Below, piece after piece: positions 40,736 to 43,872 of a DNA stretch of 64,000 nt; within the stretch, counting starts at the first letter, position 1, and each line of letters opens with the position of its first letter. Made by a program: the position numbers and the translations under genes. Below the pieces are notes generated by a model. It had not been told where the DNA came from. It did not search any database and saw nothing but the letters and a program-made list of their open reading frames with translations. The DNA is from a virus (taxonomy: Duplodnaviria; Heunggongvirae; Uroviricota; Caudoviricetes). The DNA lies in IMG/VR virus record IMGVR_UViG_3300017992_000017, positions 33,418-97,417 of that record; one strand, written 5' to 3'.

Positions 40736-41132
40736 ATCATCTCCTTGATGGTCTTGTCGATGTCCTTCCGAGCACACCGGATGATCTTGTGCTGCGTCTC
40801 AAACATATCGTCGTGATCCCCACCACACTTGCATCGCTCCATCTCCAGGACGGACCACGCATACTTCCAGTCAGCGTCCTTGGGGAGCTTCCACTGATAC
40901 TGCCACCCACACCATTCATCCCGCGTATCGTCTACTCCTCGCCAACGGGATCTCTCGACCAGTACCCAGACGCGCGTGTTATCTTCCTGTTCTCTGCGGG
41001 CGCGTTCTGCTTCGGGACTGTAGTCGGTCTTGTCAAACGGCTTCCCTTCCGGTCCGTACAGTTCCCATTCCCACCTTGGCGTATGGTGAGGTCATTCTCA
41101 TAGGTGACGTAGCGATACTTGTTGAGACTCAC
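40732..41132 (-). pseudogene. gene needing a -1 frameshift (pseudogene, sequencing error or recoding)
   Basis: GTG 41132 (GTGA-coupled to the upstream stop) opens MSLNKYRYVTYENDLTIRQ. A start-less -1 frame then reads RWEWELYGPEGKPFDKTDYSPEAERARREQEDNTRVWVLVERSRW...CKCGGDHDDMFETQHKIIRCARKDIDKTIKEMI to the stop at 40732. Confidence 0.4.
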
Positions 41133-41842
41133 GTGGTAACCCCCGGTTCACGAGGTGCGATCGCTGTAAGACACATCTCCCCGACCTGAGAAGAACGCCA
41201 CATCTCCCCGACCTGAGAAGAATGCCACATCTCCCCGACCCGAGAAGAGTCATGCATCTTCCCGACCTGAGAAGAATGCCACATCTTTCCGACCTGAGAA
41301 GAGTCATGCATCTTCCCGACCTGAGAAGAGTCATGCATCTCCCCGACCTGAGAAGAACGCCACATCTCCCCGACCTGAGAAGAATGCCACATCTCCCCGA
41401 CCCGAGAAGAGTCATGCATCTTCCCGACCTGAGAAGAGTCATGCATCTCCACAACACACTGTGCGCCGTCAACGTGTTTCAGGATCGCATCGCCTAGGAG
41501 GACAATGCTCCGTACAACGCTTGGAAGGAAAGCTGTCGTACCGGTCCGTAGCACGGCAAGCCACGGTAGCAGGGACGATATACCGTTAAGTGTTCGTAGC
41601 TCCCGGACCAGCTCGTCTGCAGCACCTACGACACGATCAGGAACACAATCACCCCGTAACGGTTGGGTAGGGTATGGCACATCCGACCAGCATCGTGGCG
41701 TAAGTTCCCATTCCCAGAATCGCTGCCGTCCGATCCCGTTCTCCCCACCGATATACCGTCTCGCCAGCTCGGTGTGGCCATGGACCCCGTCCGCGACAAG
41801 ACGTCCGTCCCGACAGATATTGACCGACAAGAAATCACACAT
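41129..41842 (-). CDS. MCDFLS-domain protein with a C-terminal 9-residue tandem repeat
   Basis: N-terminus MCDFLSVNICRDGRLV is paralogous to 42859..43872. C-terminus has ~10 copies of (M/W)(H/R)(D/S)SSQVG(E/K)M. Confidence 0.6.
   Translation of the reverse strand: MCDFLSVNICRDGRLVADGVHGHTELARRYIGGENGIGRQRFWEWELTPRCWSDVPYPTQPLRGDCVPDRVVGAADELVRELRTLNGISSLLPWLAVLRTGTTAFLPSVVRSIVLLGDAILKHVDGAQCVVEMHDSSQVGKMHDSSRVGEMWHSSQVGEMWRSSQVGEMHDSSQVGKMHDSSQVGKMWHSSQVGKMHDSSRVGEMWHSSQVGEMWRSSQVGEMCLTAIAPREPGVTT
41172..41452. repeat. 27-bp tandem repeat, ~10 copies (coding)
   Basis: CACATCTCCCCGACCTGAGAAGAACGC and variants, head to tail. Confidence 0.9.
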
Positions 41843-42119
41843 GCGAAAGTGCTCCTATCACGTTGTTCAGGTCCGACAGATCCGGCTCACCCCACAGAAT
41901 CTGAAACGAATACCCGGTACTCCACTCGCTGAAGTACCCTTGCTTGTAGAGACCGACCAGCTGTTCCCCGTCGAAGGTCCCGATGAGGTACCAGGTCTGT
42001 CCCTGTTCGCTGAGGAAGGCATCCAGAATCTGTCGGGTCATGTTCTCTCTTTCAAAATTCGCAGGGACCTCGAAACCCAGGTCTTCGTCGAACCCCGTAG
42101 GTCCGAGGTCCCTGCTCAC
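41835..42119 (-). CDS. hypothetical protein
   Basis: 94-codon ORF. Confidence 0.5.
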   Translation of the reverse strand: MSRDLGPTGFDEDLGFEVPANFERENMTRQILDAFLSEQGQTWYLIGTFDGEQLVGLYKQGYFSEWSTGYSFQILWGEPDLSDLNNVIGALSHV

Positions 42120-42134
42120 CCCAACCCCGGAGGA

Positions 42135-42314
42135 CTACACCACTGCTACACGCGTTGGCCGGATTCCTCCCTTCCAGATCTCCAGACCGGTCGGGAGAGC
42201 TGTTCCCCATAGGGTCCGGAGATGATCCTGGAAGTCGTCGGCCGTTTTCCACATCCCCAGGACCGGTCCGTACGTGTCAAGATGTCCCGGCAGTCGGTAG
42301 TACCAGCAAGTCAT
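42135..42314 (-). CDS. hypothetical small protein
   Basis: ATG 42314 after a GGAGAA SD. The track ORF extends to 42368. Confidence 0.4.
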   Translation of the reverse strand: MTCWYYRLPGHLDTYGPVLGMWKTADDFQDHLRTLWGTALPTGLEIWKGGIRPTRVAVV

Positions 42315-42508
42315 GACAGTTCTCCGTTGGTTAGAGAGGCACCTGCGTCCGGTTTCGCCCTGATCCATCGAGATGTGGCTCTCGAATCTCCCCCGGCTAC
42401 ACAGGTATCCGCCGTAGTCCAGTCGCTTTGGGTGTGAAGTCCACCAATCGGGTAGGGATGCGACTTACCACAAGTCGCTGCGACCGGTTCCCAGGTTTAC
42501 TACGGTTT

Positions 42509-42841
42509 CTAGCCTCTGTTCTCCTCTTGCTTCCGAAACGCCGAGACGATCCGCGTTTCCTTGCCTGTACCCGAGATCCCGAACCCGATCCGGTCATTCT
42601 CTTCGGCGTACGCTTTCATCCGTTTGCGTGCCTCCGGATCATGACCGTCTAGTGGGAGGTACCAGTAGTCGCCGGTCAGTTCCCAGCCGAAAGGGACCGT
42701 ACGACCGATCACCGGCAACTCATCCACCGGCAAGGTCAAGATCTCATCCGGGGTCCAGCAGACGTACGGGGTGAGGTTTCGTTTGCAATGCTGTACGGCG
42801 ACGGCATTGTTACGCTGAACGATCTGAGCTCCTGAAAGCAT
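42509..42841 (-). CDS. hypothetical protein
   Basis: ATG 42841 after an AGGAGGA SD. The 338-codon track ORF upstream of it is read-through of the stop-free repeat. Confidence 0.5.
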   Translation of the reverse strand: MLSGAQIVQRNNAVAVQHCKRNLTPYVCWTPDEILTLPVDELPVIGRTVPFGWELTGDYWYLPLDGHDPEARKRMKAYAEENDRIGFGISGTGKETRIVSAFRKQEENRG

Positions 42842-42858
42842 GGTAGGTCCTCCTGGAG

Positions 42859-43872
42859 TTAGATTGGTTGTCCATTCTGGATCGAACAGGACTCTGCACA
42901 CCGGATCAAACAGGAACCTGCATTCTGGATCGAACAGGAACCTGCACTCTGGATCGAACAGGACTCTGCACACCGGATCGAACAGGACTCTGCATACCGG
43001 ATCGAACAGGACTCTGCACACCGGATCGAACAGGACTCTGCATACTGGATCGAACAGGAACCTGCATACTGGATCGAACAGGACTCTGCACACCGGATCG
43101 AACAGGAACATGCACTCTGGATCGAACAGGACTCTGCACACCGGATCGAACAGGAACCTGCATACCAGATCGAACAGGAACCTGCACTCTGGATCGAACA
43201 GGACTCTGCATTCTGGATCGAACAGGAACCTGCATTCTGGATCGAACAGGAACCTGCATACCAGATCGAACAGGAACCTGCATTCTGGATCGAACAGGAA
43301 CCTGCATTCTGGATCGAACAGGACTCTGCATTCTGGATCGAACAGGACTCTGCATTCTGGATCGAACAGAAACCTGCATACCGGATCGAACAGGACTCTG
43401 CATACTGGATCGAACAGGAACCTGCATCCCGCATCGAACAGGAACCTGCATTCTGGATCGAACAGGACTCTGCATACTGGATCTTTGCTGATCCTGCATG
43501 AAGAATCTGACAGCCGTTGAGGCATCTATGGATCTTCACCTTGCCCGTCAGGATCCAGCGTCCAGCTCCCAGGACCCTCTGGTCCTCACTAACGATCATG
43601 CGCTTAATACGTTCCCGAAGCGACTCCACCGTCCTGGTTCGCATCTCCTCAGTAAACCAGTCTGGGACAACCGTTTCATCTACGACAAACCCGTAGTTGT
43701 CGAGATCTGCATAGTCCTTGCCGTTAGGGACAAACTCAACACGGCAGAAATTGTCCGAACGTGTATCTGAGAGATTCCGTAGGTCGACCAGGTTCTCGTG
43801 CGAATCGGTGGCTTCTGGACGACAAATGATATCCCCATTCTTGAGGACAATGGCTGAAAGGAAGTTACACAT
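42859..43872 (-). CDS. MCNFLS-domain protein with a C-terminal 8-residue Cys-containing tandem repeat
   Basis: ATG 43872 after an AGGAGA SD gives MCNFLSAIVLKNGDI. C-terminus has ~25 copies of A(G/E)SCSI(Q/R)(N/Y/C/S). Confidence 0.6.
   Translation of the reverse strand: MCNFLSAIVLKNGDIICRPEATDSHENLVDLRNLSDTRSDNFCRVEFVPNGKDYADLDNYGFVVDETVVPDWFTEEMRTRTVESLRERIKRMIVSEDQRVLGAGRWILTGKVKIHRCLNGCQILHAGSAKIQYAESCSIQNAGSCSMRDAGSCSIQYAESCSIRYAGFCSIQNAESCSIQNAESCSIQNAGSCSIQNAGSCSIWYAGSCSIQNAGSCSIQNAESCSIQSAGSCSIWYAGSCSIRCAESCSIQSACSCSIRCAESCSIQYAGSCSIQYAESCSIRCAESCSIRYAESCSIRCAESCSIQSAGSCSIQNAGSCLIRCAESCSIQNGQPI
42879..43500. repeat. 24-bp tandem repeat, ~25 copies (coding)
   Basis: GGATCGAACAGGACTCTGCACACC and variants. 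At least five reading frames stay open across it on the ORF track. Confidence 0.9.

Follow-up and report, generated by a model that had tools for sequence, protein, structure and literature searches.

Genes A (41129..41842) and B (42859..43872), both on the minus strand of the window (the whole 64,000-nucleotide stretch of viral DNA analysed here), are supported by profile comparisons as two diverged paralogs of one widespread and undescribed family of phage proteins. Gene A encodes 237 aa, starts with MCDFLS (MCDFLSV), carries the canonical 9-residue units and is a member of a divergent subfamily termed 'A-type'; gene B encodes 337 aa, starts with MCNFLS (MCNFLSA), combines an intact head domain with 8-residue units and is preceded by an AGGAGA ribosome-binding site 6 nt 5' of its ATG. 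The best explanation taken whole, namely a pair of paralogs from a family that joins a Met-Cys head to a solenoid and acts as a host-directed Cys/His factor, is considered probable, although its mechanistic part is held with low certainty. The family is common in uncultured phages, although neither a name nor a Pfam, NCBIfam or PADLOC model nor a solved relative exists for it. Three unusual traits come together in it: a Cys fixed at the N-terminus, a head fold without a PDB match, and three types of solenoid repeat exchanged on the same head.

The first-pass annotation had described two frames beginning Met-Cys and sharing an N-terminal domain. The ORF translations bear out both the frames and their starts. 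The N-terminal similarity is weak and not significant when the two proteins are compared pairwise (BLASTP, E=0.059), but it is recovered with profiles. A family HMM built from 131 relatives, with A and B left out, and run against the 424 ORFs of the window ranked B first (E=1.3e-42) and A second (E=8.6e-4, aligned from residue 1), the third-ranked ORF having E=0.18. Moreover, the A-type subfamily, whose relatives P0246-P0249 are 55-65% identical to A, was aligned by hhalign to the main family with a probability of 97.5% (E=8.3e-12) over columns 1-75. On the basis of this profile evidence and of the common architecture, A and B are placed in one family, so that the paralogy proposed earlier stands. 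The shared F.(W/R)(E/V)(W/E)(E/F) element that had been noticed corresponds to the F-x-R-x-E-F-x-P strand of the family. The common charged helix has been recovered in part: it is predicted in B (residues 75-92), but that half of the A head cannot be aligned to the main family.

The head comprises about 110 residues and is predicted to be of alpha/beta type. In B it extends over residues 1-112 (43537..43872, minus strand), from the Met-Cys start, and its predicted structure has a pLDDT of 91.9. The constancy of Cys2, suspected from the two proteins, extends to the family, the Cys following the initiator immediately in 149 of the best 151 members; in the family alignment C2, H25 and W72 are conserved at 100%, E46 at 99%, D65 at 97% and R44 at 89%. 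The marks of the family are Met-Cys followed by F-x-S-A, T-D-S-H-E-D-L, F-x-R-V-E-F-x-P, D65, P-x-W and an LLGG entry, all of them kept in B together with every conserved head residue (C2, S6, T22-D23-S24-H25, R44, E46, D65, P70 and W72). At the end of the head, LLGGxWIL is predicted to form the first rung of the solenoid. In the A head (residues 1-122; 41477..41842, minus strand) the His and the F..E..P strand persist and the solenoid entry reads LLGD, but T-D-S, R44 and an alignable D65 or W72 are lacking; its first half can be aligned to the family, and the conservation of its second half does not go beyond the subfamily. No family was found for the head in the Pfam, NCBIfam and PADLOC libraries, no named PHROG matched it, and comparison with PDB sequences and PDB folds gave no match; a literature search found no paper covering the domain. 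NCBIfam Lepto_7_Nterm (E=0.035), tried as a head family, matched just one of 98 members and was dropped.

The suggested search for Met-Cys-start relatives in other genomes has revealed a large family. A profile search of metagenomic proteins grouped in 50%-identity clusters gave 2050 clusters at E<=1e-3, 906 of them at E<=1e-10. Three kinds of unit are attached to the same head, namely 9-mers as the commonest, 8-mers, of which some contain Cys, and true pentapeptide repeats: among the best 151 members the unit periods are 9/18/27 in 92, 8/16/24 in 23 and 5/10/15 in about six, and Pfam pentapeptide domains are recorded on around ten family members. The B 8-mer is of the AG type, as in P0039, P0063, P0095 and L021, the last of which also has Cys-containing 8-mers. 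Arrays range across the family from one to about 26 units and, since members with just 1-3 units exist, a long rod is not essential. Among 50,697 GenBank phage records the family was present in three, all metagenomic, and in no cultured phage. These three uncultured records were found by tblastn with real member sequences; tblastn with the HMM consensus gave no match, probably as a result of low-complexity masking. A scan of genome contigs gave one locus only, and an exact sequence look-up of B returned no record.

Regarding the repeats, the earlier counts of about ten nine-residue and about 25 eight-residue copies were close to the mark. The A array (41177..41446, minus strand) consists of 10 units M[HW][DHR]SS[QR]VG[KE], fitting the family 9-mer logo M-[RWYLHC]-[GED]-[SNT]-S-[QKNR]-V-G-[EVATK], and Tandem Repeats Finder describes it as 27 bp x 10.3 at 41174-41450, with an 81-bp super-period. 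The B array (42874..43497, minus strand) consists of 26 units A[GE]SCSI[QRW][NYCS], reported by the same program as 24 bp x 25.5 at 42873-43483; it contains 31 Cys in 208 aa and is preceded by degenerate rungs at residues 113-125. Nearly all variation within an array falls at two or three unit positions. In B it is confined to positions 2, 7 and 8 and synonymous differences are almost absent, and in A units 2-4 and 8-10 have the same DNA sequence. Gene A ends ...MCLTAIAPREPGVTT and gene B ends ...QNGQPI, neither having the post-array x-D-x-R and basic tail found at the C-terminus of 81 of the best 151 members; this tail being common and not universal, the tailless A and B are still admissible in the family.

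The tandem units are predicted to build a rod-like, single-chain beta-solenoid. The beta-solenoid type of structure, already proposed from the shortness of the repeats, is what AlphaFold2 predicts for the full-length B monomer (pLDDT 85.2), with unbroken strands over residues 98-332. Each unit would be one side of a right-handed, three-sided coil, a full turn taking about 24 residues in B and about 27 residues in A; the small or hydrophobic residues that are conserved (Ala, Cys and Ile in B, Met and Val in A) would point inwards, the variable positions lying at exposed corners. Furthermore, the related 8-mers (AGSATIQN) have Ala at the Cys position, and it is thus plausible that B contains a 'Cys ladder', its Cys probably stacked in the core as free thiols.

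The copy number of the units has been compared between assemblies. Two independent assemblies of the same phage, L045 and L046, show 1-3 base mismatches with the window over 12-18 kb. By blastn, L045 1-7731 corresponds to window 49066-41336 and L045 7630-17776 to window 41275-31129, and L046 behaves alike. Over window positions 31129-49066 (~17.8 kb), the sole differences from L045 are a 162-bp (six-unit) in-frame indel in the A array, present in the window (zone 41174..41437, minus strand) and missing from L045 and L046, and one SNP in the B array. With both differences inside arrays, the repeat family offers a natural system for the growth and shrinkage of repeat proteins. L046, which begins within the B array, has the same indel and one SNP elsewhere. 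Consequently to the indel, A has 4 units in both assemblies and 10 in the window, the 4-unit form (P0245) being a protein of 183 aa. The unit number also differs within the near-identical pairs L003/L004 and L025/L026. The instability of copy number that had been anticipated is therefore seen in A but not in B, whose 26 units are the same in the window and in L045. Identical units may have recombined, or slippage may have occurred between them, to give the change in A; the copy-number evidence is in part soft, as short-read assembly may have collapsed or broken arrays. At least nine of 38 viral contigs terminate inside an array, and such arrays are a practical reason for broken phage contigs.

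As for the genomic context, three small minus-strand ORFs, and not the two genes counted before, lie between the paralogs: 42509..42841 (110 aa, with a GGAGGA ribosome-binding site and not of the Met-Cys family), 42135..42368 (77 aa, or 59 aa from an ATG at 42312) and 41835..42119 (94 aa, or 68 aa from an ATG at 42041), the stop of the last overlapping the start of A (ATGTGTGA). A family search gave no family for any of the three. A and B stand among small accessory ORFs on a strand on which ArdA and a phosphoesterase are also encoded, and the sampled plus-strand block is one of replication and repair (methyltransferase, DNA polymerase, an SbcC-like protein and exonuclease). Relatives in other phages are found near integrase, repressor, Erf, SSB and exonuclease genes, and no conserved gene neighbour was found across 38 viral loci. 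Further non-coding tandem arrays occur near A and B in the window. The host is probably a member of the Planctomycetota, as P0248 and L043 suggest. The possibility that the repeats are the target of a diversity-generating retroelement has been rejected: a scan for the Y/F-x-D-D motif in the window ORFs of at least 200 aa found no reverse-transcriptase-like ORF, its matches being the DNA polymerase, the SbcC-like protein and two ORFs without other polymerase-like feature (one probably non-coding), and the variation lies between units of one array.

Several other explanations have been weighed. That the arrays, or their lengths, stem from short-read misassembly would account for the many metagenomic contigs that break in arrays, among them L046, and for the varying length of A between assemblies. 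This is highly improbable, since the B array was reproduced unit for unit, with one SNP, in an independent JGI assembly and arrays are universal across the family; the shortening of A could in principle be a collapse, yet two separate assemblies agree on four units. Equally little credit can be given to the arrays acting as DNA, that is, as iterons or protein-binding sites of an intragenic origin or operator, as in the lambda O gene, with the peptide as by-product. The units are indeed near-identical in DNA, with almost no synonymous variation, and other non-coding tandem arrays are close by; but hundreds of widely divergent phages keep the amino-acid motif, which invariably follows the same head in frame, the unit length is always a whole number of codons, and three unrelated unit types (5, 8 and 9 residues) are all solenoid-compatible, with confident AlphaFold2 folds.

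At the protein level, the solenoid could imitate DNA like MfpA and Qnr and so block a restriction enzyme, gyrase or RecBCD, the head being accessory. Some members bear genuine pentapeptide repeats behind the head, which speaks for this, as do the early or recombination regions occupied in other phages and the presence of A and B in the same strand block as ArdA, which is itself a DNA-mimic antirestriction protein. Known DNA mimics, however, are strongly acidic, and the reading is weakened by arrays of near-neutral charge (the 208-aa array of B has a net charge of -4 and the 90-aa array of A one of -3, the canonical family 9-mer averaging about -0.2 per unit); it also leaves the constancy of the N-terminal Cys and the His unexplained, and members with 1-3 units are too short for imitating DNA, so that we regard it as unlikely. 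Less likely still is a virion spike or fibre, in which three chains would intertwine through their 8- or 9-residue units into a beta-helix, after the manner of the octapeptides of T4 gp5C or VgrG: no virion structural gene was identified near A and B, surrounded as they are by accessory ORFs, the sampled plus-strand block is one of replication and repair, the relatives adjoin integrase, repressor or recombination genes with no conserved structural neighbour, many members have few units, and the AlphaFold2 monomer of B is already a confident closed solenoid.

Under the preferred reading, that of a head-plus-solenoid family directed at the host, the proteins might be made with the early or accessory phage genes and act on a host component without a dedicated partner. 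The head may be a Cys/His-centred catalytic or metal-binding site, in which the Cys would become residue 1 once Met is removed, and the solenoid may serve as a stiff and quickly evolvable rod or binding surface; the B head would be intact, and the A subfamily would keep Cys2 and the His, the rest being remodelled. Should the head turn out to be enzymatic or to antagonise a defence, the family would constitute a new class of phage-host interaction proteins. A bolder version, which we hold as a rather doubtful possibility, makes the head a new and very small enzyme or reactive module, whose N-terminal Cys, freed by the loss of Met and aided by His25, Glu46 and Asp65, would act on a host molecule by attack or covalent capture, the target being, for example, an intermediate of thioester or aldehyde type from a bacterial defence pathway, with the interchangeable solenoid providing reach or target recognition. 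Were it true, these would be a new and widespread class of phage counter-defence proteins, overlooked until now because no cultured phage has it.

The comparison with known systems concerns both the head and the arrays. The hallmark of Ntn enzymes is a residue-1 nucleophile with a free amine after Met removal, and the Cys after the initiator Met is a candidate N-terminal nucleophile of the kind present in Ntn hydrolases and class II glutamine amidotransferases; the four-layer alpha-beta-beta-alpha fold of the Ntn hydrolases was not found. Among array matches, Cornifin/SPRR (PF02389), a eukaryotic epidermal small proline-rich protein with Pro/Gln/Cys-rich 8-9-mers, gave B 41.5 bits against a cut-off of 34.8, and was rejected as an artefact of periodicity and composition, the match being limited to the array of a phage-encoded protein with no Pro in its units.

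The unit of the beetle antifreeze protein TmAFP is TCTxSxxCxxAx and that of the bacterial ice-nucleation protein (INP) is the AGYGSTxT octapeptide. B has an S-C-S reminiscent of the T-C-T face of TmAFP with inward Cys, and the AG-type AGYATIQD resembles the INP octapeptide, a likeness that is geometric only: B is without the second Cys per unit needed for the TmAFP disulfides, it is a phage, cytoplasmic protein, and Pfam Ice_nucleation did not match. Right-handed parallel beta-helices of the pectate-lyase-like type (phage tailspikes and depolymerases, AlgE4, and the autotransporters TibA and Ag43) are secreted proteins or parts of the virion, with irregular coils that bear loops and active-site grooves, whereas here near-perfect 8-mer coils occur in a small protein without signal peptide, encoded among early genes.

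The octapeptide (VxGxxxxx) helix of T4 gp5C/VgrG shares with the present proteins a phage origin, an 8-residue period and an all-beta rod (PMC4576200). In that helix three chains are intertwined in the baseplate spike, whereas in the present case the coil is predicted to be closed by one chain, and the gene does not belong to a structural module. A phage baseplate or spike beta-helix was also tried as the identity of the arrays and rejected, the matches being weak and array-limited (phrog_9992 at 6.2e-5, with no stretch passing alone, and PF21929, the fourth domain of Mu GpP, at E=0.88) and the genes lying among accessory genes.

Finally, PF00805, with its A(D/N)LXX five-residue units, matched neither A nor B at E<=1, and the two proteins differ from the pentapeptide-repeat proteins (MfpA, Qnr and AlbG) in their 9-residue (A) and 8-residue (B) units, in arrays that are not acidic and in a head absent from known pentapeptide proteins; the predicted B helix is, moreover, closer to three-sided than to four-sided solenoids. 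The pentapeptide-repeat proteins likewise form a beta-solenoid from short tandem units, and in about ten relatives of A and B genuine PF00805 repeats follow the same head.

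Two minus-strand genes, A (41129..41842, 237 aa, starting MCDFLSVNICRDGRLV) and B (42859..43872, 337 aa, starting MCNFLSAIVLKNGDII), encode an N-terminal domain beginning Met-Cys (the head) followed by a tandem array of short units. AGGAGA precedes the ATG of B at the right distance; the start codon of A shares bases with the stop of the ORF before it (ATGTGTGA). Tandem Repeats Finder describes the A array (41174-41450, minus) as 27 bp x 10.3, with super-periods of 54 and 81 bp, and the B array (42873-43483, minus) as 24 bp x 25.5; cut in register, they give 10 units M[HW][DHR]SS[QR]VG[KE] and 26 units A[GE]SCSI[QRW][NYCS], respectively. 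Each perfect array is preceded by degenerate units (GKVKIHRC LNGCQILH in B), and in both the units differ in DNA sequence only in the codons for two or three positions, with hardly any synonymous change; units 2-4 and 8-10 of A are DNA-identical. Three small ORFs, instead of the two first counted, lie between the genes. Since the 24-bp unit of B contains no stop codon, 42873-43525 can be read through in all three frames of the minus strand and in two of the plus strand, with spurious ORFs of 197-338 aa, one of which continues into the real downstream gene 42509..42841.

A direct BLASTP comparison of A and B gave only E=0.059 over 28 residues, so the relatedness claimed by the first-pass annotation needed outside evidence. 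Residues 1-133 of B retrieved six metagenomic proteins (36-50% identity), all of which begin MC(N/K)F(L/Y)SAIVLKNGDI and terminate in A-type units of nine residues (MWGSSNVGE and MYDSSKVGV, for instance); the same architecture is found in Dulem virus 35, an uncultured phage. Moreover, a family HMM built from 131 relatives, with A and B left out, and scored on all 424 window ORFs gave E=1.3e-42 for B and E=8.6e-4 for A (aligned over residues 1 to 51), the next ORF scoring 0.18. The profile of the A subfamily (proteins P0246-P0249, 55-65% identical, one from a Planctomycetota MAG) matches the main-family profile over columns 1-75 (hhalign probability 97.5%, E=8.3e-12). These profile results are significant where the pairwise match was weak, and show A and B to be old, true paralogs: B pairs a standard head with the less common 8-mer array, and A a divergent head with the standard 9-mer array.

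A and B are new members of an undescribed, widespread phage family. When a head profile was run against 1.84 billion cluster representatives, 2050 proteins passed E<=1e-3 and 906 passed E<=1e-10. Source records name family proteins only as 'hypothetical protein'. Among the best 151 members, Cys immediately follows the initiator in 149, a count that takes in GTG starts and over-extended gene calls. C2, H25 and W72 are 100% conserved, E46, S6, P70 and D65 97-99%, and G103, G104, L28, D23, F4, P49, S24 and R44 about 90-95%. The same 151 measure 138 to 318 aa, B being near the top of the family range, and 81 of them end in x-D-x-R and a basic tail, found in neither A nor B. Pfam, NCBIfam and PADLOC have no model for the head, nor does any named PHROG match it; the family matched no PDB sequence, and a literature search found no paper on it. 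Only 3 of 50,697 GenBank phage records, all uncultured, carry it, and a consensus query, possibly masked, matched none of 72,556 plasmids. The phage of relative P0004 has a second member at its contig end, so paralog pairs are not unique to the window; its contig (L041) also bears consecutive genes of the GGACT, Peptidase_C26 and COOH-NH2 ligase types at 9382-13086, a set reminiscent of phage DNA hypermodification pathways.

The window itself belongs to a novel phage, with no nucleotide match to known phages and a DNA polymerase at most 30% identical to that of any of them. The plus-strand block is one of replication and repair (methyltransferase, DNA polymerase, SbcC-like protein, exonuclease), and A and B are found among the small accessory genes of a minus-strand block, together with a metallophosphoesterase (39984..40568, minus) and a transposase-like ORF of 294 aa (37213-38097, minus; weak phage transposase PHROG matches, phrog_4285, E=8e-11) with a Cys-rich C-terminal motif CTKC...CKTCGGTGHKC. 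This block also contains the antirestriction protein ArdA (49389..49982, minus; PF07275, E=3e-42), some 5.5 kb upstream of B, and around ArdA 50016..50783, 53948..54895 and 44709..45821 match only PHROGs of unknown function. In other phages and a Pirellulales MAG, family neighbours include integrase, excisionase-like HTH, repressor, Erf, SSB, exonuclease and helicase genes, and no neighbour is conserved across the loci.

Some further elements of the window deserve mention. A 29-bp element, GGGAACGGGAACRGGTRCAYGTCAGAATG, occurs in 5 tandem copies at 49158-49298 (minus, 28-bp spacing) and in 4 at 53094-53230 (minus, 34- or 40-bp spacing), in apparently non-coding DNA and with a chance expectation of 0 matches; the former array is directly upstream of a likely gene, its last copy providing the ATG of MRVTEFEV..., and the element could serve as operator, promoter or iteron in repeated form. 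At 53236-53355, a 19-bp sequence repeated perfectly in tandem 6.3 times (GGTCTGGTTCTGGAAGCTC on the minus strand) directly follows a terminator-like hairpin (about 53405-53432), itself after gene 53441..53935, and the next 800 bp or so hold no convincing ORF or Rfam match. A tRNA-like gene at 11767-11835 (plus; Rfam tRNA, 41.4 bits; no anticodon by ARAGORN, 'gt' at position 33) could be an unusual or degenerate tRNA.

The head of B (residues 1-112) was predicted by AlphaFold2 from a 98-sequence alignment with pLDDT 91.9 and pTM 0.83, comprising strand 5-10, helix 25-31, strands 42-49 and 60-64, and helix 75-92. Among predicted viral structures, Foldseek retrieved only two matches, both uncharacterised phage proteins and apparently family members. 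In the full-length model (pLDDT 85.2; >90 at residues 100-230, 55-65 near the C-terminus), beside which TibA, Ag43 and a bacterial antifreeze protein are listed, the head passes directly into short strands (98-101, 104-108, 111-117, 121-124) and then into unbroken beta structure up to residue 332, which upholds the solenoid proposed from the repeats. The model suggests one unit per side and 24 residues (three units) per coil, in some nine to ten coils, where the Cys of B, in place of the Ala of AGSATIQN, would stack in the core.

Unit types vary across the family. Periods of 9/18/27 were found in 92 of the best 151 members, 8/16/24 in 23 and 5/10/15, pentapeptide-like, in about 6, the remainder being irregular; precomputed Pfam pentapeptide domains fall on about 10 further members. 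The canonical 9-mer is M-[RWYLHC]-[GED]-[SNT]-S-[QKNR]-V-G-[EVATK], AG-type 8-mers as in B (AGSATIQN, AGYATIQD) occur in P0039, P0063, P0095 and others, and a Cys-bearing one, AGSCTIQD, in viral contig L021. Such conservation at the amino-acid level across divergent phages contradicts the view that the array acts as a DNA-level iteron. Two independent assemblies contain the same phage, JGI 3300028895 (L045) and ENA ERZ27256790 (L046), and misassembly is contradicted for B. Over about 17.8 kb (window 31129-49066), L045 shows exactly two differences: a 162-bp (six-unit) in-frame indel within the A array, and one SNP within the B array (unit 3 Met to Ile), whose 26 units are otherwise reproduced and so are no artefact. 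In L046, whose contig starts inside the B array, A likewise has 4 units and a single SNP lies elsewhere. A exists, as the anticipated copy-number instability implied, in 10-unit and 4-unit forms, the latter corresponding to window units 1-4, which fits recombination or slippage between the identical units 2-4 and 8-10. Both differences from L045 fall in the arrays, although these account for about 5% of the DNA compared; likewise, the contig pairs L003/L004 and L025/L026 differ in unit number with flanks 99.8-99.9% identical. This evidence is tempered where contigs are truncated, because such arrays break short-read assemblies: of the 38 viral contigs, at least nine break off inside one, making family genes a recurrent source of contig breaks in short-read viromes. 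Ends exactly within the array are seen in L003, L005, L009, L014, L018, L021, L025, L031, L036 and L046, and at position 1-454 of MT835516.

What is shown for the family is a conserved head in which polar residues are invariant, a solenoid whose unit type is interchangeable and whose length varies greatly, and an accessory-gene location with no fixed partner. A host-directed early function (counter-defence or takeover) is the likeliest role, proposed here only tentatively. The pentapeptide variants of the family and the nearby ArdA suggest a DNA mimic, a reading weakened by array net charges of just -4 (B) and -3 (A); the gene location weakens a virion spike, to which weak array-only matches and tailspike matches point. 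The head would be the working part: what is invariant in it is polar (Cys, His, Glu, Asp, Arg, Trp), as in active or metal sites, and probably not merely hydrophobic core. In that case the solenoid would serve as a stiff rod or a binding face that can evolve readily, with variable residues at its putative corners that are mostly R/W/Y/H and G/E/D.

As regards known systems, the solenoid is a known kind of structure, and the Met-Cys head and its pairing with three repeat types are described in no source searched. Once Met is removed, the Cys, which is kept at the exact N-terminus, would expose a free 1,2-aminothiol in the manner of Ntn enzymes, although the fold of the predicted head is not the Ntn fold.
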